Source of the DNA: a virus | Lineage: Duplodnaviria; Caudoviricetes | DNA: 64,000 nucleotides | IMG/VR virus record: IMGVR_UViG_2576861548_000003 | Location: 32,001-96,000 of that record | Reading direction: 5' to 3' (one strand) | Part shown: positions 7,797 to 56,864 of the stretch, one piece after another | Position numbering within the stretch: position 1 is the stretch's first letter | Layout: each line of letters opens with the position of its first letter | Program-made: the position numbers and the translations under genes | The notes under the pieces: generated by a model | Database searches by the model: none | The model's input: the letters and a program-made list of their open reading frames with translations, nothing else | Told to the model about the DNA's origin: nothing

Positions 7797-8713
7797 ACAC
7801 ACAATTAGCAATTCAAGAAAGCGACCTAGAACTGGTCGTGAGTGAAAAGACGTTAGGTAGTCTTACTACCAACGCAAAACAAATCAGAGATATGGTAAAA
7901 GCCGCTTTGCCAATGTATGATATCTCCAATTATACAGATGATAATATCGATCAAGCAAAAAAAGATAAAGCGGCTCTAAACAAAGCGGCCAAAGCTCTCA
8001 ACTCCAAACGTCTTGAAATAGAGAAAGAGTTTATGAAACCTTTCGGGGAGTTCAAGGACGTTGTAACCGAAACCGTAAAACTTATTGGTGAGTGCTCTGC
8101 TAGGATTGACACGGTAGTCAAGCAGAACGAGCAGCAATACAAGGACAAGAAGAAAGCCACTATCAAGACCTACTTTGATGGAATGAACGTAAATCTTGTA
8201 GACTTTAACAAGGTTTTCAGGTCTGAATGGCTCAACAAGTCATCCAGTATGAAATCTGTTTGTTCTGACATTGATGCTATATTTGCTAAGGTAGAGAACG
8301 AACTTTCTACCTTAAAGGGGTTTGGTGAGGATTTCGATGTCCTCCGTACTTATTATATGGATACGCTCAACATCACATCCACCATTCAGTATGCCAACCG
8401 TCTGAAAGAGCAGCGTGAGCGTGCCAAAGCAGCAGAAGAGGCGCGCATCAAGGCAGAGCAGGAAAGAAGGGCTTCCGAAGAAGCCCGTAAAGCTGCTGAA
8501 GTAGAACAAGCCAAATCCCGTCCGATCAATCCGTTTGCCATGGCAGGACAAAAAGCCAACGAACAACCTCCTTTTATTAATCATCCCGAAGTACAACAGC
8601 CTGAGCTGTTAACGAGAGCTTTCAAGGTTACTACTACCCGTGAGAATATCATTGCTTTGGGTGACTTCATGAATGAAAAAGGTATTGATTTTGATAAAAT
8701 AGAATTGCCATGA
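7793..8713 (+). CDS. DUF1351-like coiled-coil phage protein
   Basis: AKKDKAALNK..RLEIEKEFMKPF; usual neighbour of Bet/Exo. Confidence 0.75.
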   Translation: MNTQLAIQESDLELVVSEKTLGSLTTNAKQIRDMVKAALPMYDISNYTDDNIDQAKKDKAALNKAAKALNSKRLEIEKEFMKPFGEFKDVVTETVKLIGECSARIDTVVKQNEQQYKDKKKATIKTYFDGMNVNLVDFNKVFRSEWLNKSSSMKSVCSDIDAIFAKVENELSTLKGFGEDFDVLRTYYMDTLNITSTIQYANRLKEQRERAKAAEEARIKAEQERRASEEARKAAEVEQAKSRPINPFAMAGQKANEQPPFINHPEVQQPELLTRAFKVTTTRENIIALGDFMNEKGIDFDKIELP

Positions 8714-25258: not shown

Positions 25259-26173
25259 ATGAACATTGGATTAATCGACGTGGATGGTCATAACTTCCCT
25301 AACTTTGCTCTTATGCGTACGTCTGCCTACCATAAAGATAGAGGTGATCAAGTAGAATGGGCTGCTCCTTTTAGCAAATACGATAAAGTAATTGCAAGCA
25401 AGATATTTACCTTCACTCCTGATTTTAATTACTTGACTTTGGAAGCTGGCATAATAGAGAAAGGAGGGACTGGCTATAATATAAAAAAACAATTACCATG
25501 TGAAATTGAAAGTAGCAAATCTATGGATTATTCGATCTATCCTCAATACAAGTTTTCAATTCAATTTTTTAGTCGAGGCTGCATCCGTAAATGTCCTTTC
25601 TGCCTTGTCCGTGAAAAAGAGGGGTATATTCATCCAGTGGAACCTGTTGATTTGAACCCTAAAGGAGACTGGGTTGAGGTACTGGACAATAATTTTTTTG
25701 CTAATCCGGAATGGAAAGATTCGGTTGATTATCTTCTCAAAGTGAAACAGCCCGTAAAGCTTCATGGTGTAGATGTTAGAATTATGGATGAAGAGCAGGC
25801 TTATTATCTGAATAAGCTGAAAATGAAACAGAATATTCATATCGCTTGGGATTTACCGCAGATTGATCTAACGGATAGACTAAAAGAAATGATTAAGTAC
25901 GTGAAGCCTTACAAAATAACCTGCTATGTGCTGGTAGGATTCAACTCTACTATTGAGCAGGATTTGTTTCGGCTTAATACACTAAAGAGCTTGGGTATTA
26001 CTCCTTTTGTTCAACCTTATAGGGATTTTGTGAACAAAAGAAAACCTAAGCAATATGAGTTAGATCTTGCGAGGTGGGCGAATAGAATGTGGTTGTTTAA
26101 GTCGCTTGATTTTGCAGACTTTTCACCACTCAAAGGATTTAAGTGTGATTATTATTTAAAGCAATTAGCGTAA
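25259..26173 (+). CDS. Radical SAM protein
   Basis: SRGCIRKCPFC (CxxxCxxC), LDNNF, YVLVGF. Confidence 0.88.
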   Translation: MNIGLIDVDGHNFPNFALMRTSAYHKDRGDQVEWAAPFSKYDKVIASKIFTFTPDFNYLTLEAGIIEKGGTGYNIKKQLPCEIESSKSMDYSIYPQYKFSIQFFSRGCIRKCPFCLVREKEGYIHPVEPVDLNPKGDWVEVLDNNFFANPEWKDSVDYLLKVKQPVKLHGVDVRIMDEEQAYYLNKLKMKQNIHIAWDLPQIDLTDRLKEMIKYVKPYKITCYVLVGFNSTIEQDLFRLNTLKSLGITPFVQPYRDFVNKRKPKQYELDLARWANRMWLFKSLDFADFSPLKGFKCDYYLKQLA

Positions 26174-28007: not shown

Positions 28008-28568
28008 ATGAATTTAAACGAACTTCGTGACAAAGCCTATAGAATAGCTTGTGACCATGGCTTTCATGATAAGGAATTAAGTAATGAACATTGCTTAATG
28101 TTAGTGATCACAGAGCTTTCCGAAGCTGTAGAAGCGGACCGAAAAGGTAGATTAGGAAAAAATTGTAAACGTCGTTTTGAAATGGAATACAATCGTTATC
28201 CTGCATTAGTAGAGGAAGAAAAACGATTTAAGTGCTCGTTTGAAAATAATGTAAAAGATTCACTTCCCGATGAACTTGCCGATGCTGCTATACGACTGTT
28301 AGACCTATGCGGGCTACGTAACATTGAGTTAGAAAATGATTGTCTGGATGATGAAGTGCTTGAAGAATATTCGCGTATATTCATTAACAAAACATTCACA
28401 GAGTCCATTTTCAATATTACTAAAAATCTTATTGATAGAGATATATCCTACTCTCTTATTAAGATTTTTGGGCTTGCTAAGCATCTCGATATTGATTTGC
28501 TCTGGCATATTGAGCAGAAACAAAGATATAATGAATTAAGACCTGTGTTGAACGGAAAAAGATATTAA
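28008..28568 (+). CDS. MazG-like NTP pyrophosphohydrolase
   Basis: LMLVITELSEAVEADRKG..DELADAAIRLLD..KQRYNELR. Confidence 0.8.
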   Translation: MNLNELRDKAYRIACDHGFHDKELSNEHCLMLVITELSEAVEADRKGRLGKNCKRRFEMEYNRYPALVEEEKRFKCSFENNVKDSLPDELADAAIRLLDLCGLRNIELENDCLDDEVLEEYSRIFINKTFTESIFNITKNLIDRDISYSLIKIFGLAKHLDIDLLWHIEQKQRYNELRPVLNGKRY

Positions 28569-33053: not shown

Positions 33054-33090
33054 AAAAGTGATTGTTTTTACTTCATATTTTGTATTTTTA
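33054..33090 (+). promoter_or_regulatory. Palindromic promoter motif, copy 2 (degenerate)
   Basis: AAAAGTGA-N11-TCATATTT-N2-TATTTTTA. Confidence 0.55.
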
Positions 33091-33108
33091 CACCATAAAA
33101 TTAAAGCA

Positions 33109-33519
33109 ATGAGGATTTACACAAGTTATTTCGGGAATTACAGAAAACTAGCAGCTGCAAACGTAAAAATGATATGTGTTGCGCTAGGGAAGCCAAGATT
33201 TTATAATGCACCTCAGATCATAGAGGTGGCACCAAGAAGATACATGTTGGATGATAAATGGACTTATGAAGAGTACACGAATATGTATTTGAATGATGTC
33301 CTTGCAAAAGTCAATCCGCAAGAATTGATTCAAACTATCCAGCGACTCAGTGAAGACAAAGACGTCGCTCTCTGCTGTTACGAAAAACCGGGTGATTTCT
33401 GCCATCGTCATATTTTGGCAAAATGGCTTACCGAAAAGACTGGCATTGAAATAACAGAGTTCGGAGTAGTTGAAAGGAAAGAACCTAAATACGAACAAGC
33501 AAGTTTGTTTGAGATATGA
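33109..33519 (+). CDS. DUF488-like protein
   Basis: Likely start ATG 33109 MRIYTSYF; ALCCYEKPGDFCHRHILAKWL. Confidence 0.8.
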   Translation: MRIYTSYFGNYRKLAAANVKMICVALGKPRFYNAPQIIEVAPRRYMLDDKWTYEEYTNMYLNDVLAKVNPQELIQTIQRLSEDKDVALCCYEKPGDFCHRHILAKWLTEKTGIEITEFGVVERKEPKYEQASLFEI

Positions 33520-33917
33520 ACAGAGAAATAATATTCAGAGGGAAAAGCACAAATAATGGTAAATGGGTGTATGCAAAATTACATGGGTTTGGCATGGACT
33601 TATTTAATGAGTGTGTACAGGAGAATACTGTTGGGCAGTTCACCGGCTTGCATGACAAGAACGGAAAAGAAATATATGAAGGTGACATTGTTGAACAAAT
33701 AGTTACAAATGGATACGGTTATGGTTTTATAGGTGAAGTAAGTTTTGATAACGGAGTTTTTGGTATAAAACATAAGACTTATAAAGGTTACATTGTATCT
33801 AGTTTTGTATATTCCTCAGATTGGAATGATGGTCATGCGCACGGAACCGTTTTATATGAATATGAATTAAAAGGAAATATCTACGATAACCCAGAATTAT
33901 TAACCAACTATCAATAG
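33516..33917 (+). CDS. YopX-family protein (copy 2)
   Basis: Near-identical to 28571..28972. Confidence 0.9.
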   Translation: MNREIIFRGKSTNNGKWVYAKLHGFGMDLFNECVQENTVGQFTGLHDKNGKEIYEGDIVEQIVTNGYGYGFIGEVSFDNGVFGIKHKTYKGYIVSSFVYSSDWNDGHAHGTVLYEYELKGNIYDNPELLTNYQ

Positions 33918-33977
33918 CGTTTGATAGAATGCTGTCAGATTTGCCAAGCAAGCGGTGGTTTGACAGCATAGTTAAAA

Positions 33978-34050
33978 GGGAATTTAGCAAAGATGGTCTA
34001 TGCGTCGGACTAAAAATCCGAAGAACAAGGTTCGAATCCTTGAGTTCCCA
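33978..34050 (+). tRNA. tRNA-Phe-like with AAA anticodon
   Basis: GGGAATT/AGTTCCC-A acceptor, TCGGA-CTAAAAA-TCCGA anticodon arm, CAAGG-TTCGAAT-CCTTG T-arm. Confidence 0.8.
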
Positions 34051-34275
34051 CAGTCTTGTATCAATGAACGCACCACTCTATCCGAATTGAAGACGGGCGT
34101 CGGGTCTGTCTGAAGATAGGAAAGCCGATAGAGTAGCAGATAGAAAGGGGAAGGGTAAATCCGAAATAAGTCCCAGAGAGTATCTATCAAGGTGGATTCC
34201 CACAAAATCATGTGGCAGTTGACGGTGACGACATGGCGGTTCATAATGTTGGCAGCTTGGAATAGACAAGCATTT

Positions 34276-34345
34276 GCGGAAATAGCTCATCGGTAGAGCG
34301 TTGGCATTCCAGCCAAAGAGTGGGGTTCGATTCCCTGTTTCCGCT
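34276..34345 (+). tRNA. Atypical tRNA-Gly(TCC)-like
   Basis: GCGGAAA/TTTCCGC-T acceptor; GCTC/GAGC D-stem; TTGGC-ATTCCA-GCCAA 6-nt loop; TGGGG-TTCGATT-CCCTG. Confidence 0.8.
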
Positions 34346-34464
34346 CTAATGCCGTTAAACTCGGCTCGTTGATTGAGGTTGTGTAAAGTAAGCGACAAGG
34401 TTCGATTCCTTGCATTTAGTTGGTACTGCAAACAATCTGACAGCGTGGAAAGACACGCAAATTT

Positions 34465-34620
34465 GGTAGTATGGCGGAATTGGTAGACGCTGACAACTCT
34501 TAGTAGACTTGGTTACGATGTTATGAAAACTGGGCATCATTGTAAAACGAACCAATCCAGTGTTACACGGAAGATGTAGAAGATTGCCAAGCATTGCAGG
34601 TTCGAGTTCTGCTGCTACCT
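34465..34620 (+). ncRNA. tRNA-like RNA with ~100-nt structured segment in place of anticodon/variable arms
   Basis: GGTAGTA/TGCTACC-T acceptor, Leu-like D-arm GGCGGAATTGGTAGACGC, T-arm GCAGG-TTCGAGT-TCTGC. Confidence 0.65.
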
Positions 34621-34775
34621 CAACCCTTATAGTAGCGATAAGCAAAAGCAAGAACATTAAAGCTTGTACAGTTTACGGGGTGATGGAAATTGCCATCTGA
34701 CACGACTGAAAGAAGCCGAATAAATTGCATAGGTGTTCTTGCAAATAGCTTGAAGAATAGTTAGATTTGTGTTAA

Positions 34776-34801
34776 GCCTGCCGGGAATACGCCCGGTAGG
34801 C
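34776..34801 (+). terminator. GC-rich hairpin at end of tRNA cluster
   Basis: GCCTGCCGGG-aatacg-CCCGGTAGGC; short U tract. Confidence 0.5.
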
Positions 34802-34844
34802 ATTTAGTGCAAAATGTATATGAAGTTATATACAACTTAAATAT

Positions 34845-35744
34845 ATGAACGATAAAGGACTAATAAGAGCATGTGAAAACTCCGGCTGTGGTTGGAAGTG
34901 TTGTTCGTTCGGATCAGACGGACATATTGTAATTTTGCCCCATGAATTTGACGGGCATGAAAAAGAAATCTCCCATTTACAGATTATAGACGATGATTAC
35001 TTTGGCGGTAAAAAGGTAAAATGTATCGCTAAAGATTGCAAATCATGTGACAATGGTTACAAGCCTATTATGTGTCGTACTTATCCTTTGTGGGTAAAAT
35101 CAGTGAAAAAAAGTTTTGTGTTTCGTAGTGGTAAGTGTCCGCTAAATAATGAACAACTTGCTAAACATAAGGAGTTTGTATTAGACATTTTCAACAATTA
35201 CAGAAAAGTGCTGTTGCCTGAAAATGATATAGACACATTCCTTTCAAAAGCATGGATTGACCGTTACGAACCGCTGTTCCCAATAAAGAAGGAAAGCACA
35301 GAGTACAAGATGCAGGTCAAATCTTTATCTATGTCTGATATATCAGATATTGAAAAGATGGAGCAGACGCTTCTTCGCAATCCAGATATGTGTTTCGCAT
35401 CAGAGCCGGAAGACATAGCCAAATGCTTGGAATCAGGTTGCAGTTATGGGTTATTCGTAAATGACAAACTGGCTGCCTATTCTCTTGCATACTTCACAGA
35501 ATACGGTACTGCCTATGTGGATAAATGCTTTGTTCATTCTGATTACAGAGGGAATGGATTCCAATACGTACTTCTCAATTCTAATATTGCTAAATTAATA
35601 TCTAATGGGGTCCAGGAAATCTATGCCATGGTCTCACCGAAAAATGAAGCAAGTATCAAGAGTTTCATTAATGCAGGATTTTCTTTTAAACGAGATAGCA
35701 AATACAAAGAGATTGAACGTTTAATCTTAAAGTGGGAACTATGA
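34845..35744 (+). CDS. YkgJ-like Cys-cluster domain fused to GNAT acetyltransferase
   Basis: CENSGCGWKCC..C..C..C..KPIMCRTYP; GNAT motif A VHSDYRGNGFQ and NEASIKSF..AGF. Confidence 0.8.
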   Translation: MNDKGLIRACENSGCGWKCCSFGSDGHIVILPHEFDGHEKEISHLQIIDDDYFGGKKVKCIAKDCKSCDNGYKPIMCRTYPLWVKSVKKSFVFRSGKCPLNNEQLAKHKEFVLDIFNNYRKVLLPENDIDTFLSKAWIDRYEPLFPIKKESTEYKMQVKSLSMSDISDIEKMEQTLLRNPDMCFASEPEDIAKCLESGCSYGLFVNDKLAAYSLAYFTEYGTAYVDKCFVHSDYRGNGFQYVLLNSNIAKLISNGVQEIYAMVSPKNEASIKSFINAGFSFKRDSKYKEIERLILKWEL

Positions 35745-36619
35745 AAGTTGTTGTCTATACCAAGAATATAATAGAGAACATTGAAAAGGCGCAAAGCTTT
35801 ATTAATGTTCCTATCTCGTTAATGTTCAAAGATTTCTACGAGGATATTTATGGACATATCGCGGATAAAATAAACAATAAGATTTTTGGGCTTCATTTAA
35901 AAGATAGTATATGTTATTCTATTGGCAAAGCGACAAAAGATAATAGTGGTGCCGTGGTGACATCATTTACTGATGTTTGGCAATATCTTAATATCAATGG
36001 TATCGCATGTCAAGGAATACATAATTTCTACATTCCGATTAATGCTTGTGATGATAGAGAAGGTTTAAGTTGTTATGAAGCAAGTAAGTTGGCCAATGAA
36101 ATAAGAATGATTTCAAGCTCCCATATATATGGCTTGATTACTTCTGGATGTCTGAATGAAAACCATCCCTCGGAAAAAGAATTGTACCGTATTTGGAAAA
36201 GCCTACGCGATAATATTGAATCTATTAGTTTGGGTGGTAGCTTTTGGCTTGGACAAGAAACTAAGATCCCAGAATTCACAAGCGATGTTCGTATTGGTGA
36301 ATATATGCTGTTTGGCACAATCCCATATTGTGATTATGAGGTGAGAAAAGGTCTTAATGGCATAGAAATCGAAACAAGGGTTATAGGTATTTACCCAGAA
36401 CGTAATCAATTGATTTTGGATTGTGGCTATTCAATGGTAGACTTAGATAAGTGTCAAATTAGTGATTGTACCAATTTGAAGTTTGTAGATAGTTCTAGTG
36501 AATACTCAATTATGGAGTGTGACCATGTCTCAGATTATTGCATTGGTGATGTGGTTACGTTTGTTCCCAATTATAAATCATTAGTCAAGTTGAGATATGC
36601 AGAACATGAATATAGATAA
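35741..36619 (+). CDS. PLP-dependent racemase, ornithine racemase/YhfX-like (fold III)
   Basis: LMFKD (candidate PLP Lys), DDREGL, ISLGGS, VRIGEYMLFG, LILDCGYSMVD, IGDVVTF..Y. Confidence 0.78.
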   Translation: MKVVVYTKNIIENIEKAQSFINVPISLMFKDFYEDIYGHIADKINNKIFGLHLKDSICYSIGKATKDNSGAVVTSFTDVWQYLNINGIACQGIHNFYIPINACDDREGLSCYEASKLANEIRMISSSHIYGLITSGCLNENHPSEKELYRIWKSLRDNIESISLGGSFWLGQETKIPEFTSDVRIGEYMLFGTIPYCDYEVRKGLNGIEIETRVIGIYPERNQLILDCGYSMVDLDKCQISDCTNLKFVDSSSEYSIMECDHVSDYCIGDVVTFVPNYKSLVKLRYAEHEYR

Positions 36620-38684
36620 ACCTTGGATTGATTATATATCCAATCGTACATTTGGCATGGAACTGGAGTTTGCCGATGGTGACAAACAACGCATCCCGCT
36701 TCCATCCGGTTACAAGTGGACGGACAACAAGTTGACCATGATGAACAATTCGGATGGTTCGGCAGTTACGCATCACGGCCAGTTCGGTGGTGAGATAAAC
36801 ACCCGTCCATACCATTACTGCGCTGAAGACCTTCAGGAGTTGAAAGACTTCATTCATACCATGAAAGATGCGGGAAGCTATCTTATGTGGAATGAAGGCT
36901 TTGATGCGCATCTGTACATCAAGGATATGGACCTGGATGTTATCAAGCGTATGTTTGTCCTCTCTTATTATACTGCATATCCAATCAAACGGATATTTGA
37001 TATTGCGGAGTGGTGGGAAACAAAATATCTCGTACCAAGCCCTCCTTGGGATGTAGTGAAGCGTGTATTGGAAGCAGATACTATTGAGAATCTACTGAAA
37101 GTTTTTAGCAATGGTTCAGATCGAGGACACATCCGGTACTGGCTTAATTTATGTTCTATTGAAAAGATAGGAACGGCAGAATTTAGGATCTTCAATAGCT
37201 CCTGGGATTTCGATAAAATACTGGAAACAATCAAATTCATGTATTCGTTTGTGGAGTACGCCTACCTGCATGAAGATATGGAAGAGTATAAGCAACTCAC
37301 CACAATTGATAGGTGCCTTGAAGTGTTCAATATAGACTATTCTAAGGTTCCCCAAAGACATAAACCGTTACTTTGGGCAGCAGAACACTCGGATAATGTT
37401 ACAATAGTAGGCTCCATGTTTAAGAAATCCAACCGTATGCTTTCCTTTATCAAGAAAGAGGCTTCCAAATTCGATGTAGCCCATGTGGTAAACTCGTATT
37501 ATATGGATATAGAGCAAATACTTACCAACCGTGAGATTAAGGTGTATACAAAGGAGTATTTTATCTACATGATGTATAAGGCAATCAAGGGAGAGATAAA
37601 AGAACTGCGCTTTAATGAAGAATATGAGTTTCTAAGTATTAAATCTGAAAATCCTGCTGAAATTATTGCCACTATTCACCTTTTTAATGCCATCAAAAAG
37701 CATAAGAATTCACAGGATATTTATCACAAATCGCTTTATGACGATTTTATGGCAAAGTTAGAGCATTACCATAAGAAGTATACGGAACGTTATCAAAAGC
37801 TAGTAGATAACCTTAAAAGTAAGTCTATTGAAGTGCTTTATTGTGCTGATATATCGGATGCGATTCTTAACTGTAAAGAGGATGATATACTAATCTATCA
37901 GAATGAATTTCATTCCGGAATGAAAGCTACGAGTAACGCATTGCAACGTTTCTTATTGGATGATTTTGGATCTCAAGAAAGAACTAAAACGAAATATGCA
38001 GAAATAGATGAAGAACAAGTTAATTACATGGCTCTCTCGCAGCATGGATTTATGGGCAGAAGAGAGGTATTCAAAGACCAACGCACATATATTTGGTCTA
38101 ATGTGGTAGAAAGCGGAGATAGTAGCTTTAACAAGCGAACTATCGTTCCTTTAAAATATAAACGGCTTCCGGATGATTATATGCTTACGGATAAAAGCAA
38201 ACTCCGGTTTGTACGTGCTTCTATGGCAGAGATTGATTATCTGCGTATGATTTACTTGAAAAAGGGTATTCTCCTCGGTTCTGCACCATTCTGTTACTTA
38301 TGGTTCTTGGATGATTATGTGTTTGGGGCTTGTATGTTTGATTTCCTGAAGGTAAGCAAATACGGCATGGATGCAGTTTGGATGAAGTCGGATTTCGTGA
38401 TAGACCATCCATTGCCCAAATTGAGTAGATTGCTAATTATGGGTGTACTTTCGTCAGAGTTCAAAGATGAATTGGACATAAGATATAAACATGAATGTGG
38501 AGTGATTGCTACTTCTGTATTTACCGATAAACCGGTAAGTATGAAGTATCGGGGAGTGTTTAAACTGCATGAACGCTGTGTTGGTAAACTCCATTACATA
38601 CAAGATGCAGGCATTCGTGGCAACTTAGATGATATTTTAAAAGATTTTGTGAAAAAATACGGTGATGAGCCGAGAAAGGAATAA
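36597..38684 (+). CDS. Amidoligase (COOH-NH2 ligase) domain fused to a putative DNA-modification region (MTase-like plus Mom/GNAT-like)
   Basis: N-term RTFGMELEF, DGS, GEINT, RYWLNL, GTAEFRIF; C-term SDFVI..KLSRLL..TSVFTDKPVSMKYRG. Confidence 0.72.
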   Translation: MQNMNIDKPWIDYISNRTFGMELEFADGDKQRIPLPSGYKWTDNKLTMMNNSDGSAVTHHGQFGGEINTRPYHYCAEDLQELKDFIHTMKDAGSYLMWNEGFDAHLYIKDMDLDVIKRMFVLSYYTAYPIKRIFDIAEWWETKYLVPSPPWDVVKRVLEADTIENLLKVFSNGSDRGHIRYWLNLCSIEKIGTAEFRIFNSSWDFDKILETIKFMYSFVEYAYLHEDMEEYKQLTTIDRCLEVFNIDYSKVPQRHKPLLWAAEHSDNVTIVGSMFKKSNRMLSFIKKEASKFDVAHVVNSYYMDIEQILTNREIKVYTKEYFIYMMYKAIKGEIKELRFNEEYEFLSIKSENPAEIIATIHLFNAIKKHKNSQDIYHKSLYDDFMAKLEHYHKKYTERYQKLVDNLKSKSIEVLYCADISDAILNCKEDDILIYQNEFHSGMKATSNALQRFLLDDFGSQERTKTKYAEIDEEQVNYMALSQHGFMGRREVFKDQRTYIWSNVVESGDSSFNKRTIVPLKYKRLPDDYMLTDKSKLRFVRASMAEIDYLRMIYLKKGILLGSAPFCYLWFLDDYVFGACMFDFLKVSKYGMDAVWMKSDFVIDHPLPKLSRLLIMGVLSSEFKDELDIRYKHECGVIATSVFTDKPVSMKYRGVFKLHERCVGKLHYIQDAGIRGNLDDILKDFVKKYGDEPRKE

Positions 38685-38687
38685 TAT

Positions 38688-39389
38688 ATGGGAAAATTCA
38701 AGATAGCGGAAGTGCAATTATCTGACATTAAACTGGTCAAGAAAAATGCGCATTTCATGCAGCAGGACACGTTTAATGCCTTAGTGAATAACATTCGTAG
38801 AGACGGTCAATTATCGTCTGTACCATTCTGTGTAAAGCATTCGGATGGCTCTTATACGGTGGTGAGTGGTAATCACCGAACACAAGCGGCAAAAATGGCT
38901 GGGCTTACTTCCATCCATGTTATGTACATAGATGAAGAGGAGACTACAAACGATTGGTTGCTGGCAACACAATTGTCACATAACAGTATAGTTGGGCAAG
39001 ACGATGCGGAGATTTTGAAGCAATTGCTTGATGAAATAACAGATGTCGCACTGAAAGAATATGCGCATATCAGTAATGAAGTTCTGGAAAGTGTGAAGGA
39101 CATTAACTATACGGTTGAAATGCCGAATAATGAAATCGTCCCGGTAACTCTTATGTTTGTTGATACGCAGAAAACCGCATTCGATAAGTTGATGGAAACA
39201 TTGGATTGCTATTCTGAAAAAGAACTTGGCAATCTTACTTTGGTAGATATGGATACAATGCACCGGTTGAATGAAGTATCGGCTAAAGTACAAGCCAAGT
39301 ATAAAATCAAGGCCCAGGCTTTGAGTATTTGCAAAATGTTGGAAATTGTAAATAATGTATTGGAGGGTAATGCGGATGGAGAAAGATAG
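38688..39389 (+). CDS. ParB/Srx-like protein
   Basis: NAHFM..LVNNIRRDG..VVSGNHRTQAAKMAG; directly upstream of terminase. Confidence 0.88.
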   Translation: MGKFKIAEVQLSDIKLVKKNAHFMQQDTFNALVNNIRRDGQLSSVPFCVKHSDGSYTVVSGNHRTQAAKMAGLTSIHVMYIDEEETTNDWLLATQLSHNSIVGQDDAEILKQLLDEITDVALKEYAHISNEVLESVKDINYTVEMPNNEIVPVTLMFVDTQKTAFDKLMETLDCYSEKELGNLTLVDMDTMHRLNEVSAKVQAKYKIKAQALSICKMLEIVNNVLEGNADGER

Positions 39390-39747
39390 AAAATACAGGT
39401 TGAATACAAGGCAAAAGAAAACATTGTTTCTAAAAGCCCTTGATGCAAGACTTCTTAATGTGACGAAAGCATGCGAGGCCGCAAGTATATGTCGTTCTCT
39501 TGCTTATAAATGGAGAGAAAATGACCCCGAGTTTAAAGCGAAATGGGAAGAGGTTGAAGAAGCGTTCAAAGACAAAATAGAAACGTGTATGTTCACAAAA
39601 GCTATTACGGAACAGGACAATACTATGCTTATTTGGCTAAGTAAAACTAAGCTTCGTGATAGAGGCTACGTAGAAAAGATTGAACAGGATTTGAACGTGA
39701 ACCCGTTTGAAAAACTTATGCAGGAATTGCCAGATGATGAAGAATGA
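39376..39747 (+). CDS. terS: Terminase small subunit
   Basis: NVTKACEAASICRSLAYKW HTH, KLRDRGYVEK; precedes TerL; start uncertain (39355 or 39376). Confidence 0.8.
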   Translation: MEKDRKYRLNTRQKKTLFLKALDARLLNVTKACEAASICRSLAYKWRENDPEFKAKWEEVEEAFKDKIETCMFTKAITEQDNTMLIWLSKTKLRDRGYVEKIEQDLNVNPFEKLMQELPDDEE

Positions 39748-45353: not shown

Positions 45354-46970
45354 ATGGCAAAACCTAAAATTCCAAATCAGAAAAAGAAGTATCAAGAACT
45401 TAACAGTCGGATAAATAGGTATGTCGTTCTTGTTGAGCAGATATACGACACACTGAATTTGGACGCCGCCAAAGCTGTTTCACGTACGGAATATTCCTCT
45501 GATAGCAATAAACCGTTTAAATGGTCCGATTACCCTCAAACTAAAAAACAAATTGACGACATACAAAGGCATTTCGTAGAAGATATAAACGCAATTATCT
45601 ATCGTGGTACGACCGAAGAATGGAAAAATAGTAATGAAGCACAGGATTTGATAGCAAACAGAGTATTAAAAGCATATAACGCACAAGTTGATAGAGAGAA
45701 ATATAAAGTTTTGTATCAAGTAAATTCTGATGCTCTGAAAGCATTTCAAAACCGGAAGGATAAAGGATTCAATATATCGGCAAAACTCTGGCAGCAATCT
45801 ATGATCTACAAAGAGGAATTGGAGGCTGCGATCTCATGCGCTATTCAAAAAGGAACCAGCGCTGTTACGTTGAGTAAGCAAATATCTCAATACTTACTTG
45901 ATTTTCCATCACTGCAAAAAGATTATAAAGACAGATACGGAAGTGCTGAACATATACAAGATTGTGAATACAGATCTATCCGCCTAGCCCGTTCGGAGAT
46001 AAACATGGCTTATCGAACATCCGAAAATGAACGTTGGAAGCAAATGGATTTCGTAGTAGGATATGAAATTAAATTAAGTTCCTCTCATCACAACCGTATG
46101 CCACATGGAGATATTTGTGATACACTTGCCGGAAAATATCCTAAAGATTTCAGATGGACAGGATGGCACCCGAACGACTTATGTTATAAAGTCCCTATCC
46201 TCAAAACAGAAGAAGAATTCTGGGAATGGGATGGACTGAGCGATGTTTCTACAGAAAGTATTAATGAAGTAAAGGATGTTCCTGACGAATTTAAAAAATG
46301 GGTACTTGACAACCAACAAAAGATTGAGAAAGCGCGGGAAAGAAACACCTTACCTTATTTTTTGAGAGATAACAAATCAATTGTTCAGAATATAAATACT
46401 GAAAATTCAGCTAAAGAGCTTGTTAATCGTGCTTCTTTAGTTGGGAAGGAGGTACAAAGTTTAGCAGAATCCATCGCTAAAAATAATAAAGGATTTGTAA
46501 CTCCAATCAATTACAAAAGCATTTCATCAATAACAAGAAAAGCGACAACGGAGGGTATAACTCCATACGATATAAAAGACGCAGTTAGGACGACAATCAT
46601 AGTTCCCAAATCACAAATAGATCAAGTCTTGAACGAACTATCTGAAAACGATTCGTTTGTGCGACTGAAAAGACAAAAGCCGGAATCATTTATGGGATAT
46701 AGTGGCAATATAGTTAATATTCAAACATCTAACGGATTAATTGCTGAGATTCAAGTTAATACAGACCGTATGATTTATGCCAAAGAAAAACCGGAAGACG
46801 CAAAACGAATTCTTGGAGAAAAACGTTGGAAGGATATACAAAATCAAACAGGTATGAAGGGGGGGCTGGGGCATAAATATTATGAAGAATGGCGAGTATT
46901 AGACAAAGCTGATAAAAAGGCGCAAAAAATAGTTGAAAAATCAATCGAATATTATAGTCATTTCCAATAA
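45354..46970 (+). CDS. MuF minor head protein with C-terminal RelA/SpoT-type nucleotidyltransferase toxin (Apk2-like)
   Basis: RLARSEINMAY, CD.LAGKYPK, WHPNDLC (MuF); DAVRTTII, GYSG, AEIQVNT, GH..YE (synthetase). Confidence 0.85.
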   Translation: MAKPKIPNQKKKYQELNSRINRYVVLVEQIYDTLNLDAAKAVSRTEYSSDSNKPFKWSDYPQTKKQIDDIQRHFVEDINAIIYRGTTEEWKNSNEAQDLIANRVLKAYNAQVDREKYKVLYQVNSDALKAFQNRKDKGFNISAKLWQQSMIYKEELEAAISCAIQKGTSAVTLSKQISQYLLDFPSLQKDYKDRYGSAEHIQDCEYRSIRLARSEINMAYRTSENERWKQMDFVVGYEIKLSSSHHNRMPHGDICDTLAGKYPKDFRWTGWHPNDLCYKVPILKTEEEFWEWDGLSDVSTESINEVKDVPDEFKKWVLDNQQKIEKARERNTLPYFLRDNKSIVQNINTENSAKELVNRASLVGKEVQSLAESIAKNNKGFVTPINYKSISSITRKATTEGITPYDIKDAVRTTIIVPKSQIDQVLNELSENDSFVRLKRQKPESFMGYSGNIVNIQTSNGLIAEIQVNTDRMIYAKEKPEDAKRILGEKRWKDIQNQTGMKGGLGHKYYEEWRVLDKADKKAQKIVEKSIEYYSHFQ

Positions 46971-52603: not shown

Positions 52604-52674
52604 GCGGAGATGGTGTAATGGTTGCATATATATCATCCAGATATCAGGTTACGGTTCAAGTCCGTATCTCCGCT
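52604..52674 (+). tRNA. Second atypical tRNA-Gly(TCC)-like gene, in tail operon
   Basis: GCGGAGA/TCTCCGC-T acceptor; TACGG-TTCAAGT-CCGTA T-arm; loop CATCCAG with A at position 33. Confidence 0.72.
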
Positions 52675-52748
52675 CTGTTTTTTGAGAATCTGATTTGTTG
52701 TTCATAATTTAATGTCGGTTGTCTGTGAAGATAGCCGATAAAAAATAA

Positions 52749-54751: not shown

Positions 54752-55624
54752 TTAGGAAACTATTTCTCCAGTATCCTTATTTAATATCAGATGGTATTTC
54801 TTTTTTTCTCCTACTTTGGTAGTGGCTTCAATGTCTAATATTACGTTATCTTTATCTAATGAATATATGGATTGGTTAACTCTTATCTCTTCATCGGTGA
54901 TGGGTACCTGCCAAATTAGATATTCATCATATATATACATTGAAAGGTCGACACACATAACCATATTGTCATAGATATATACCATATTACTGTAAGATAT
55001 AGGCAAGTAATTATTTCTTTCAATTTCTTTAATCCATCCTTCGGTACCTGTAGCATTATTCCCAATTGTCTGCTTTAAATCACTATCCAATACTCCAATT
55101 TCGTAACCTCCTGTTCTTGTGGTTATATAAATGGCAACATATTCTCCATACCAATCTGCTATTGCTTCTGGATAGAAGACAGTTTCTTCAAAGCCATTAT
55201 TATGTTCTTTATCAAAATATTCTTTTTTAAGGACCTTACCATCTTTTATTTTCAAGATGAATTTATGTGGGTGATTAGCCATATTTGCGTATAAGCTAAC
55301 CAATATATAGAAATAGTCGTCTTTTTTTAAGGCACTTTGAAGAAAACACCCGTTGACTATATATTCTCTTTTATCTCCGAACCCAAGATCATGAGTGTAA
55401 TTCTCTGCTTTATCTTTGATAGTAAATACCTTGTTCCCTGATTCATCAATAGCCTCTATATAGTAATCTCCTTCAAAGATATAGGCTTGTAGTTTTAAAT
55501 CATCTACTAAGATAGCACTGTCTATTTTATATTGGGGCTGATCTGGTTCATTAACAAGATTGTCGTTTGAACTACAACTTGTAAATATAATTATTGCTAT
55601 TATAAAGAATAAATTTTTTCTCAT
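54752..55624 (-). CDS. Lipoprotein moron
   Basis: MRKNLFFIIAIIIFTSC lipobox; opposite strand to tail genes. Confidence 0.8.
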   Translation of the reverse strand: MRKNLFFIIAIIIFTSCSSNDNLVNEPDQPQYKIDSAILVDDLKLQAYIFEGDYYIEAIDESGNKVFTIKDKAENYTHDLGFGDKREYIVNGCFLQSALKKDDYFYILVSLYANMANHPHKFILKIKDGKVLKKEYFDKEHNNGFEETVFYPEAIADWYGEYVAIYITTRTGGYEIGVLDSDLKQTIGNNATGTEGWIKEIERNNYLPISYSNMVYIYDNMVMCVDLSMYIYDEYLIWQVPITDEEIRVNQSIYSLDKDNVILDIEATTKVGEKKKYHLILNKDTGEIVS

Positions 55625-55637
55625 AAGTTGTCTGTTG

Positions 55638-56762
55638 TTATTCCCTTATTGCCATTTTAAGTGATTCTTCTAGTTTTCCTGCATATTTAAATATATCGTC
55701 TATACTGTCAATCTGAAGCCATTCGCAACTCTTGTAGTTATCTAATGGTATTCCTATCTGCTTCTTTCTTGCGCCAATAGAGATACGGCATATCCAAAAC
55801 CACTGGCTGTTATCAAGGTTCACGACGAAGTAGCTCTTGTAGTCTCTATAGGTTATACGTGTTACATCCACGCTTTTTCTTAAAATACTTCTTACGATAT
55901 TGTAAGCATCCAATTCTTCTTGCGTCGTTACAACACCGGATTCTTTGTCCATATATACAACTCCGTCCGGGAGTTTCTCTTCTGTATTTTCTGTGGAAGT
56001 ATTTATGGATGTATTGTCTGACATCTGGAGTGGATCAGATGTCTGCTCACCATTCTTTATGGCTGTGTTTAGCCTATCTGAAATGATGTCATTGATAATT
56101 GATGAGATGGATTTCTTTACAAGTGGAGTGAACATATCTATAACCTTGGATGTGATTTGCCCGGAAGTATATGCTTGGCGGGCGAAGAATCGTACAAATT
56201 CAGGTGTTGGCGATGAAAACTCGTTGTTTAGTATAGACTTTATCTCCGTTGTATATTTAAGTTCATTTGCCGTACTTAGAACATCCTCTTCGTTGTAATA
56301 TGATTTATGAAACTTTTTTAGCTGTTCTATATCCGCATCTGATAACTCAAGCATATCCACAATAAGAAACGGCTTTTCATCCATGATGTTGATTTTCTCC
56401 AAGTCTGTATAAAAGCGGTATTCTATCCCATTGGTAAGTACTCCAAATCGTGCTTTTGATGCAACAAAATACTTCTGTAGTTGCGTGTCATGCAAGTTTA
56501 AGTCCTGTTTGCAGTGTTTGCATTCTATGAGTATTATTGGGCTTTCGTCCTTCATTATGGCGTAGTCAATCTTTTCTCCCTTTTTCTTTATAAGGTCGCA
56601 ATCAAGTTCTGGAATGACTTCAAAAGGATTAAATACATCGTAGCCTAAAGCAGCGATCATAGGCATAATAAATGCTGTTTTCGTAGCCTCTTCTGTAGCT
56701 ATACTATCCTTTTGCTTTTGGATACGTTCTGCAAGTTGTAAGATTTGATCTTTAAAGTCCAT
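55638..56762 (-). CDS. HsdR_N-domain (type I restriction N-terminal) nuclease-like moron
   Basis: TEEATKTAFIMP..LGYDVFNP..KIDYAI..IECK..QLQKYF..LTNGIEYRFY; no helicase domain; likely start 56762. Confidence 0.85.
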   Translation of the reverse strand: MDFKDQILQLAERIQKQKDSIATEEATKTAFIMPMIAALGYDVFNPFEVIPELDCDLIKKKGEKIDYAIMKDESPIILIECKHCKQDLNLHDTQLQKYFVASKARFGVLTNGIEYRFYTDLEKINIMDEKPFLIVDMLELSDADIEQLKKFHKSYYNEEDVLSTANELKYTTEIKSILNNEFSSPTPEFVRFFARQAYTSGQITSKVIDMFTPLVKKSISSIINDIISDRLNTAIKNGEQTSDPLQMSDNTSINTSTENTEEKLPDGVVYMDKESGVVTTQEELDAYNIVRSILRKSVDVTRITYRDYKSYFVVNLDNSQWFWICRISIGARKKQIGIPLDNYKSCEWLQIDSIDDIFKYAGKLEESLKMAIRE

Positions 56763-56864
56763 GCTTTTATTGTTGTATAATAATATATGCACAAATATAT
56801 TTTATATAACAATATAAACAAAATTAAAGATAAAAAAATAATCTATTAAATATGTTTTTGCTAT

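Follow-up and report, generated by a model that had tools for sequence, protein, structure and literature searches.

The locus

We analysed a stretch of 64,000 nucleotides (nt), hereafter the window, which comprises bases 32001-96000 of a 109,908-base IMG/VR provirus record (IMGVR_UViG_2576861548_000003; Duplodnaviria, Caudoviricetes). Its gene content is of the siphophage type, with a gene order that runs from a replication module and small early genes through a non-coding stretch (33917-34844) and a DNA-modification module to the small and large terminase, portal, capsid and tape measure genes. Within the non-coding stretch lies a 70-nt gene for a tRNA-Gly-like RNA whose anticodon loop has only six nucleotides, and this element is the subject of the present analysis (Table 1). 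We found it to be one instance of a broad and apparently unpublished linkage between such RNAs and a family of phage enzymes that combine a Dam-like with a GNAT-phage-like domain.

The element has a 4-nt variable region and, by direct reading, the complete glycine identity set (G1-C72, C2-G71, G3-C70, U73, C35 and C36). A first-pass annotation, made from the sequence alone, had reported these acceptor-stem pairs together with U73 and the retained TCC anticodon, a loop of 6 nt (or of 8 nt on a 4-base-pair stem), two wobble pairs at the start of the T stem (U.G and G.U) and a modification operon next door. This description was borne out throughout; the first gene of the module starts at 34845. 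Since the closing C-G pair of the anticodon stem has a probability of 0.945 (ViennaRNA), the 6-nt loop is favoured over the 8-nt alternative. That is, the element lacks the 7-nt loop with U33 and a purine at position 37 that marks an elongator tRNA. ARAGORN labelled positions 34276-34346 'tRNA-??? (tc)', while Rfam RF00005 matched the element with 53 bits (gathering score 29, E 1.5e-8) and one loop position missing. A covariance model of the family described below (R1) gave 77.1 bits. The minimum-free-energy fold is the cloverleaf (z -3.49), and none of 200 shuffled sequences was equally stable. An assembly or sequencing error in the loop was ruled out, as the loop has 6 nt in 99 of 99 relatives and independent contigs carry no insertion or deletion: contigs from RNA libraries (four runs of one study) span 33770-39500 without an inserted or deleted letter.

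In the 695-amino-acid (aa) fusion protein of the module, an Amidoligase_2 domain (residues 62-218) is followed by a DAM-like-phage1 domain (PF22555; residues 292-426, 22.4 bits and thus below the cut-off of 27) and a GNAT-phage-like domain (PF22559; residues 534-662, 90.8 bits). The protein matched phrog_7858 with an E value of 2e-36. In two relatives (L101 and L102), the DAM-like and the GNAT-phage-like domain both scored above their cut-offs; no close relative of the 695-aa protein was found among species-representative genomes.

Table 1. Features of the element and its surroundings, in window coordinates (module type A as defined in the text; PLP, pyridoxal phosphate).
Feature	Position	Strand	Remarks
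tRNA-Phe	33978-34051	+	anticodon AAA
Sigma-70-like promoter match	34219..34247	+	TTGACG, 17 nt, CATAAT; ends 29 nt before the element
tRNA-Gly-like RNA gene	34276..34345	+	70-nt cloverleaf; no encoded CCA
Acceptor stem	34276-34282 / 34338-34344	+	7 Watson-Crick pairs, the first being G-C, C-G, G-C
D arm	34285-34299	+	normal; GG in loop
Anticodon stem	34301-34305 / 34312-34316	+	UUGGC/GCCAA
Anticodon loop	34306-34311	+	AUUCCA, 6 nt
T stem	34321-34325 / 34333-34337	+	first two pairs U.G, G.U; T loop UUCGAUU
Discriminator U73	34345	+	
Two degenerate tRNA-like fragments	34346-34420, 34464-34620	+	variably present among relatives
Leader	34619..34844	+	between tRNA cassettes and first module gene; in all relatives
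299-aa protein	34845..35744	+	C-terminal Acetyltransf_1 (acetyl-CoA type GNAT); type A accessory, absent from types B and C
295-aa protein (PLP-like)	35732..36619	+	weak D-ser_dehydrat match, 24.6 bits (cut-off 22); type A accessory
695-aa fusion protein	36597..38684	+	Amidoligase_2 + DAM-like-phage1 + GNAT-phage-like; phrog_7858, phrog_2443
233-aa ParB_N-like protein	38688..39389	+	after the DAM-like/GNAT gene
Second tRNA-Gly-like gene	52604..52675	+	GCG...CGC-U; in the structural module, 18 kb away

Conservation in close relatives

Close relatives of the locus were obtained from two sources. A search with the first module gene yielded 49 loci, and an exact 30-base pattern of the element yielded 50 more, some of them on the same contigs. 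The element was present in all 99 loci, in 15 sequence variants, and its loop had 6 nt throughout (AUUCCA in 97 loci, GUUCCA in 2); a 7-nt loop was found in none of the 99. The closing pair of the anticodon stem is C.A in two variants (L142 type) and U.G in others. Random decay among relatives, which the first-pass annotation had named as a finding that would refute its proposal, was thus not seen, and the odd loop is conserved.

Within the gut clade, we compared 54 distinct haplotypes of element and leader from 154 loci. Pairwise diversity was 0.029 in the element (17 of 72 columns vary) versus 0.132 in the adjacent 226-base leader (137 of 236 vary), that is, about 4.6 times lower, which argues that the element is under purifying selection. 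Two more distant loci point the same way. In L127, which comes from another sample, the enzyme is 65% identical to the type-B enzyme of the gut clade and a Gly-like element lies 103 nt upstream; its D, anticodon and T stems differ from those of the window, and the loop AUUCCA closed by C-G is kept. L295 carries AUUCCAU on a similar stem (CGGC/GCCG), i.e. the loop of the window plus position 38. We therefore take the odd loop as a maintained character.

The genes behind the element fall into three architectures. Type A, that of the window, encodes an acetyl-CoA type GNAT protein, a PLP-like protein, the Amidoligase_2/DAM-like/GNAT-phage-like fusion and then a ParB-like protein. Type B has a 433-aa DAM-like-phage1/GNAT-phage-like protein followed by a ParB-like protein, and no amidoligase. 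Type C comprises an octopine-dehydrogenase-like protein, an Amidoligase_2/DAM-like-phage2/GNAT-phage-like fusion, a 240-aa protein and an ATP-grasp ligase. The first module gene of the window is absent from 30 of the 50 pattern-derived loci, where homology ends at its start, and a homologue of the C-terminal two-thirds of the 695-aa protein was present in all 18 tested records that lack this gene. The Dam-like/GNAT-phage-like protein (PF22555/6 + PF22559) is therefore the constant partner of the RNA gene, since it is common to all three architectures after the same RNA gene.

A ParB-like gene follows the DAM-like/GNAT gene in all three cassette types. Among 62 distant representative loci, a ParB_N-like gene (230-330 aa) came after the enzyme gene in 37 (E <= 0.01), and the Pfam ParB_N cut-off was reached in 5 loci of this set. 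It is plausible that the ParB-like protein is a partner, perhaps a required one, of the Dam-like/GNAT enzyme, since ParB-dependent phage thymidine dioxygenases were reportedly described in PNAS in 2026.

The non-coding stretch itself is a mosaic of cassettes. The Gly-like gene occurs in 49 of 49 loci with a window-type module, and the tRNA-Phe, tRNA-Ser and tRNA-Cys cassettes vary (tRNA-Phe in 32 and tRNA-Ser in 3 of the 49). Many relatives lack two extra cassettes: the 3' end of their Gly-like gene (34346) abuts position 34619, where the last tRNA-like fragment of the window has its 3' end. The leader behind this joint is far less conserved than the Gly-like gene. Because the cassette joints fall exactly at tRNA 3' ends, tRNA cassettes seem to come and go by recombination at these sites.

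Linkage to the Dam-like/GNAT-phage-like enzymes

To go beyond the gut clade, we used the enzyme. An exhaustive HMMER search with the type-B protein gave 756 clusters (50% identity representatives, E <= 0.001). As the sequences in the overall alignment (A1) differed too much for it to serve in searching loci, we turned to sub-alignments of three clades, which yielded 227 further viral loci. Each locus set consists of the best 80 or fewer loci per scan by similarity, and the fractions given here are no census. In the family consensus, FPPTY takes the place of the Dam motif DPPY and the first motif reads GCSGNF, which would fit adenine binding without ordinary methyl transfer.

Near the enzyme gene of loci L195-L341, ARAGORN called tRNA-Gly with the anticodons UCC (15), CCC (9) and ACC (6), besides '???' (4), Met (4), Arg (2), Phe (1) and Gln (1). 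Outside the gut clade, Gly genes are mostly located 15-400 nt upstream of the enzyme gene on the same strand. ARAGORN alone undercounts, with 13 of 66 clusters at 70% identity. We built a covariance model from 38 family sequences and applied it to those 133 of the 227 viral loci in which ARAGORN had made no Gly call; the model stems from the very family that it searches, and it is roughly calibrated. Hits below about 30 bits were taken as Gly-like by their GCG...CGC-U(CCA) ends and CC-containing hairpins, and two hits below 20 bits (L200 and L247) as well as seven Arg, Gln or Met tRNAs were dropped from the recount. The model revealed about 40 additional elements with a GCG start and a CGC-U-CCA end, many of which have 5-6-nt NNCCA loops and shrunken D arms. 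Most of the distant copies encode CCA.

For 194 viral loci, 1 kb or more of sequence upstream of the enzyme gene was available. A Gly-like element lies in this 1-kb interval in 116 of them, and not one has a non-Gly tRNA alone there. When the enzymes are clustered by identity, a Gly-like element accompanies 20 of 34 clusters (50% identity), 26 of 61 (70%) and 40 of 94 (90%). A second, independent set, the best 80 prophage loci from one-genome-per-species bacterial assemblies (hereafter the genome set), covers Streptomyces, Micromonospora, Oscillospiraceae, Selenomonadaceae, Planctomycetota, Chloroflexota and others. Here, the element was found within 1 kb upstream on the same strand in 53 of 77 eligible loci, mostly 3-240 nt away, and the ARAGORN calls in the 80 loci were Gly in 42 cases, '???' in 2 and Arg in 2. 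Synteny by common descent alone was ruled out as an explanation, as the arrangement recurs in 20 of 34 clusters and, across several bacterial phyla, in 53 of 77 loci, with RNAs that have diverged along with the enzymes. Co-occurrence with Mom-like genes had been proposed as a check by the first-pass annotation; the co-occurrence is strong, with the partner being the PF22559 GNAT fused to a Dam-like domain and not Mom itself. Full-text searches found no published description of a linkage between tRNA-Gly-derived RNAs and the Dam-like/GNAT family.

An RNA that always lies close upstream on the same strand might act in cis, either as a tRNA-shaped signal for processing or stability of the module transcript (RNase P/Z, mRNA 5' end) or as a translational regulator, with no aminoacylation involved. 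It fits this idea that no convincing terminator was seen between the element and the first module gene in the window, and that a single RNA-library contig covers element and operon. Processing, however, needs the tRNA shape only, yet the invariant positions coincide with the glycine identity set and U73 (see below); CCA is encoded in most distant copies, and not one locus has only a non-Gly tRNA within 1 kb. We regard a role in cis as unlikely.

Conserved and drifting positions

In the alignment of the 38 family sequences, G1, C2, C35, C36, G53, C61, G71, C72 and U73 are invariant, and the G3-C70 pair is kept in 37. Cloverleaf pairing reaches 95.5%, versus 65.1% in shuffled sequences and 37-52% in slid controls. 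Changes on both sides of the pair were seen in 17 of 21 pairs, and these compensatory changes preserve all four stems.

The anticodon loop behaves differently. U33 is present in 25 of 29 non-gut sequences and in 27 of 39 seven-nt loops of the genome set, versus 10 of 11 non-Gly tRNAs from the same loci; the corresponding counts for a purine at position 37 are 22, 33 and 11. G38 occurs in 21 of the 29 non-gut sequences (in 19 of them paired with C32) and in 29 of the 39 genome-set loops, and in none of the 11 non-Gly tRNAs. C35-C36, on the other hand, is found in all 29 and all 39. A canonical loop is left in 5 of 29 non-gut sequences and in 1 of 41 genome-set sequences (UUUCCAA). The first anticodon base of the non-gut sequences is U in 17, C in 7 and A in 5. 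Fifteen of these 29 have GG in the D loop, and the T loop starts with UGC instead of UUC in 3 of the 29 and in 11 of the 41 genome-set sequences. Thus, the decoding rules (U33, purine 37, 32/38) are widely broken across the family.

Bacterial glycyl-tRNA synthetase (GlyRS) reads G1-C72, C2-G71, G3-C70, U73, C35 and C36. Since these positions are fixed whereas the positions for the U-turn and for codon reading drift, the pattern corresponds to the signature expected of an RNA that needs glycylation but not decoding, as far as comparative sequence data can tell.

Four other explanations were weighed. The element could be a working decoding tRNA, either a Gly isoacceptor that suits the codon usage of the phage or, with an 8-nt loop, a frameshifting tRNA: UCC is kept, the D and T loops look normal, and an 8-nt loop would form if the closing C-G pair, which is replaced by C.A or U.G in some variants, were opened. 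Given the high probability of that pair in the window, the lack of a 7-nt loop among the 99 close relatives, the rules broken family-wide at U33, purine 37 and 32/38, and the frequent A34, we consider a decoding role highly improbable.

We give hardly any more credence to the view that the element is a pseudogene in decay, has hitch-hiked along, or merely marks the cassette boundary as a scar of recombination or integration. Cassette junctions do lie exactly at tRNA 3' ends (34346 joined to 34619), two degenerate tRNA-like fragments follow just downstream, and degraded copies stand beside some mom genes (see below). But the diversity of the element is 4.6 times lower than that of the flanking leader, compensatory changes occur in all four stems, and the same odd loop is found at 65% protein identity. 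Random decay is ruled out by this low diversity together with the covariation.

Loop mutations have been described by which phage tRNAs escape anticodon nucleases, and the variation in the present family is likewise concentrated in the anticodon loop. The RNA might thus belong to a tRNA-targeting conflict, where it would act as a decoy for, or as a substitute resistant to, anticodon nucleases of the host or GNAT toxins directed at Gly-tRNA, or might itself be the substrate of the enzyme (for example at the conserved A37 of the NNCCA loop); GNAT toxins specific for tRNAGly are mentioned in passages of PMC13219725. A translational substitute, however, needs a 7-nt loop with U33, and many copies have 5-6-nt loops or no D arm. 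A decoy need not adjoin one enzyme family across phages of Actinomycetota, Bacillota, Bacteroidota, Planctomycetota and others, and the Dam-like domain, followed by a ParB-like gene beside the terminase genes, points to DNA. Such a conflict is quite unlikely in our view.

Finally, the RNA might carry an aminoacyl or acyl group that does not come by way of GlyRS and glycine, but is loaded, for example, by the fused amidoligase, or is another residue. The enzymes of types A and C include a fused Amidoligase_2 domain, and the accessory genes all act on amino or carboxyl groups. Type B, however, keeps the same RNA without an amidoligase, and the invariant C35, C36, U73 and first three acceptor pairs are those read by GlyRS, which makes another loading route very unlikely.

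Comparison with Mom and with other tRNAs

A reaction of the kind considered here is known from Mom. According to passages of Silva et al. 2026 (Nat Commun, PMC13219725), Mom moves glycine from Gly-tRNAGly onto N6 of adenine in double-stranded DNA, and the adduct subsequently rearranges to a carbamoylmethyl form; Mom accepts all three E. coli tRNAGly isoacceptors, and recognition is probably centred on the acceptor end. Like the window enzyme, Mom is a phage protein of the GNAT superfamily tied to DNA adenine. It uses any host isoacceptor and Mu has no tRNA of its own, whereas the window family usually comes with its own aberrant Gly-like gene. Moreover, Mom belongs to another Pfam family (PF25680), while the window enzyme is fused to Dam-like and amidoligase domains and followed by a ParB-like gene. 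The search covered the main text of PMC13219725, where tRNA genes next to mom homologues are not discussed.

No sequence kinship between the GNAT-phage-like domain and Mom could be detected. PF25680 had no match in the 109,908-base record, BLASTP found nothing, a comparison of the family profile A1 with a Mom alignment (A6) by hhalign gave a probability of 1.2% (E 0.043), and the family profile did not match the Mom PDB entry 8bv8. A protein atlas placed Mom at rank 6 (score 0.88, on 21% of cluster members), which serves as a lead only. A Ser and an Arg within an SMKYRG motif are invariant in the family and form an unproven candidate match to the catalytic Arg/Ser pair of Mom. By analogy, the enzyme may work by a mechanism like that of Mom, yet it does not belong to the Mom family.

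We also inspected the best 80 true Mom-family loci. A canonical tRNA-Gly(UCC) lies 122-204 nt upstream of mom in three of them (L391, L394 and L395), degraded tRNA-Gly copies occur at three related loci (L387, L392 and L393), and mini Gly-like elements are located just downstream of mom in two high-GC loci (L418 and L419). The only other tRNA among the 80 loci is one for Ala. The Mom family, whose co-substrate is known, thus has the same kind of neighbour, but rarely and sometimes in decay.

Staphylococci provide a second comparison. Passages of PMC7826273 describe non-proteogenic tRNAGly that binds EF-Tu and the ribosome poorly; EF-Tu sequesters proteogenic Gly-tRNA and thereby inhibits FmhB, and the non-proteogenic species escape. 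According to the same passages, S. aureus and S. epidermidis are as yet the only species in which tRNAs for non-ribosomal use have been detected. Two background claims of the first-pass annotation, that Mom uses a Gly-tRNA donor and that staphylococci use non-ribosomal tRNAGly, hold as far as these passages of PMC13219725 and PMC7826273 go. As proposed here for the phage elements, the staphylococcal non-proteogenic tRNAGly(UCC) are extra species that are charged by GlyRS, perform poorly in translation and feed a GNAT-fold transferase (FmhB/FemA/FemB). They are chromosomal and lineage-restricted (PMC7826273), serve peptidoglycan synthesis and have their defects in the D and T arms. The phage elements, in contrast, are phage-borne and defective chiefly in the anticodon loop, and DNA is their presumed acceptor. 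The staphylococcal T-loop UGC recurs in part of the phage family. The window element has the T loop UUCGAUU and GG in its D loop, and so lacks the staphylococcal-type T loop (UGC/UGU for UUC) and altered D and T arms.

Ordinary phage tRNAs likewise occur in small clusters between early and late genes and can carry changes in the anticodon loop. They stay competent for decoding, whereas the loop of the window element has 6 nt and the element goes with one enzyme gene instead of with codon usage; its relatives differ from ordinary phage tRNAs by 5-6-nt loops, bases other than U33, and a pyrimidine at position 37 or C32-G38.

Proposed function

We consider it probable, with a chance of about two in three, that the element is a dedicated non-translational glycyl carrier for a Mom-like, tRNA-dependent modification of adenine in the phage DNA. 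The first-pass annotation had proposed a dedicated non-translational glycyl donor, and this idea stands as the best-supported reading in view of the conservation, the linkage and the fixed identity set. Structure, conservation, linkage across lineages and the pattern of conserved and unconserved positions are observed. That the RNA is charged, stays out of translation and acts as a donor is inferred, as are the target base and the final chemistry; the proposed course is as follows.

The RNA would be transcribed and processed as a tRNA, with CCA added by a host enzyme, and host GlyRS would charge it with glycine by way of the identity set G1-C72, C2-G71, G3-C70, U73, C35 and C36. The malformed anticodon loop, and possibly the wobble-rich T stem, would bar it from the ribosome and perhaps from EF-Tu. 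The GNAT-phage-like domain would then take the glycyl ester and acylate a DNA base, in the way that Mom uses Gly-tRNAGly of the host; the likeliest target is N6 of an adenine that the Dam-like domain presents. The accessory enzymes (amidoligase, acetyl-CoA GNAT and PLP-like protein, or the opine-dehydrogenase-like protein with the ATP-grasp ligase) might elaborate the glycyl group further, as suggested by their common action on amino and carboxyl groups. A reason for a private carrier may be seen in the staphylococcal non-proteogenic tRNAs, since these escape sequestration by EF-Tu.

Several observations weigh against a glycyl carrier. About 40% of the enzyme lineages at 50% identity, and more at finer clustering, have no Gly-like element within 1 kb; the RNA is thus not obligatory for the enzyme family, just as Mu needs none. 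The second Gly-like gene of the window, at 52604, does not adjoin the modification module. With GG in the D loop and UUC in the T loop, both of them normal, the elbow of the element bears no mark of non-translational use, and the 6-nt anticodon loop could hamper recognition of C35 and C36 by GlyRS. The RNA-library contigs attest presence in the libraries, as distinct from transcription, ends or CCA addition. The GNAT-phage-like domain has no sequence kinship to Mom, so that the use of aminoacyl-tRNA rests on analogy plus linkage. And as degraded tRNA-Gly copies persist in one Mom clade, adjacency alone is no proof of need.

Extending the glycyl-carrier reading to the whole family, we lean slightly towards the view that phages harbour a widespread, undescribed class of non-translational tRNA-Gly derivatives that are dedicated carriers of the Dam-like/GNAT family with its 756 clusters. 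The class may extend from cloverleaves that are nearly normal to reduced ones, in which the D arm is small and the NNCCA hairpin has 5-6 nt. If so, glycine-derived adducts on DNA adenine, in some cases extended, would be made by many phages of Bacteroidota, Bacillota, Actinomycetota, Planctomycetota and further phyla, with an RNA co-substrate of their own and, as a rule, a ParB-like partner. A very large phage enzyme family that so far has a domain name only would gain a co-substrate (glycyl-tRNA) and a reaction type, and tRNA-dependent DNA hypermodification would grow from the single case of Mom to many phage lineages. It would be the second known case, after staphylococci, of tRNAs reserved for non-ribosomal use, and the first of a virus that encodes such a carrier beside its enzyme. 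The elements would form a natural set of GlyRS-chargeable RNAs orthogonal to translation, and many prophage annotations as 'tRNA-Gly' or 'tRNA pseudogene' would probably not be translational. The question would reduce to a two-gene construct of the RNA of about 70 nt and the 433-aa type-B enzyme.

Other features of the region

The gene at 52604 scored 58.8 bits with covariance model R1 and was not reported by Rfam at the gathering score. Its 7-nt loop CAUCCAG has A33 in place of U33 and a possible C32-G38 pair. Each of 10 pattern matches showed the gene conserved, with two variants among them, and the same loop is found in the Gly-like gene of L120, located 291 nt upstream of its DAM-like/GNAT gene.

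The two degenerate fragments downstream of the element gave no Rfam match even at E 10 and folded no better than shuffled sequences. In the fragment at 34464-34620, the D arm is of the Leu type, the T arm and the acceptor stem are good, and about 90 nt are inserted in the anticodon region; a faecal phage record without annotation (MT835900) matches this fragment with 86% identity. The tRNA-Phe of the window differs by a single G34-to-A change from the commonest GAA form, which is present in 30 of the 32 window-type loci with a tRNA-Phe and also in the type-B relatives. One variant of the gut-clade tRNA-Cys(GCA) in L145 carries C33 for U33. Outside the window, the intron mode of ARAGORN revealed a tRNA-like sequence (G000:C1:5536-5613) with good acceptor, D and T arms and an enlarged anticodon arm, and a normal tRNA-Glu is located at 8431-8500 (-).

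The host is probably a Bacteroides, since an integrase-like protein (843-2084, -) groups with proteins that NCBI attributes to Bacteroides hominis and B. fragilis, and a 5.7-Mb contig also holds proteins of the window. No close relative of this region was found in the phage database. Seven promoter-consensus sites were found in the region versus 3.0 expected. The match upstream of the element is one to the consensus only, and since Bacteroides promoters differ from the sigma-70-like consensus, it is of little weight.

Among the early genes, those for a radical-SAM protein (25259-26173, phrog_9298), a pyrophosphatase (28008-28568, phrog_9236) and a DUF488 protein (33058-33519) might be linked to nucleotide or DNA modification. 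Residues 208-355 of the head-morphogenesis protein (45354-46970, +) match a PHROG labelled Bxa ADP-ribosyl transferase, which is a label only. The tail module is interrupted by two opposite-strand genes (55638-56792, - and 54752-55624, -) that look like a moron; one of the two carries a type I restriction HSDR_N domain (phrog_4225, endonuclease).

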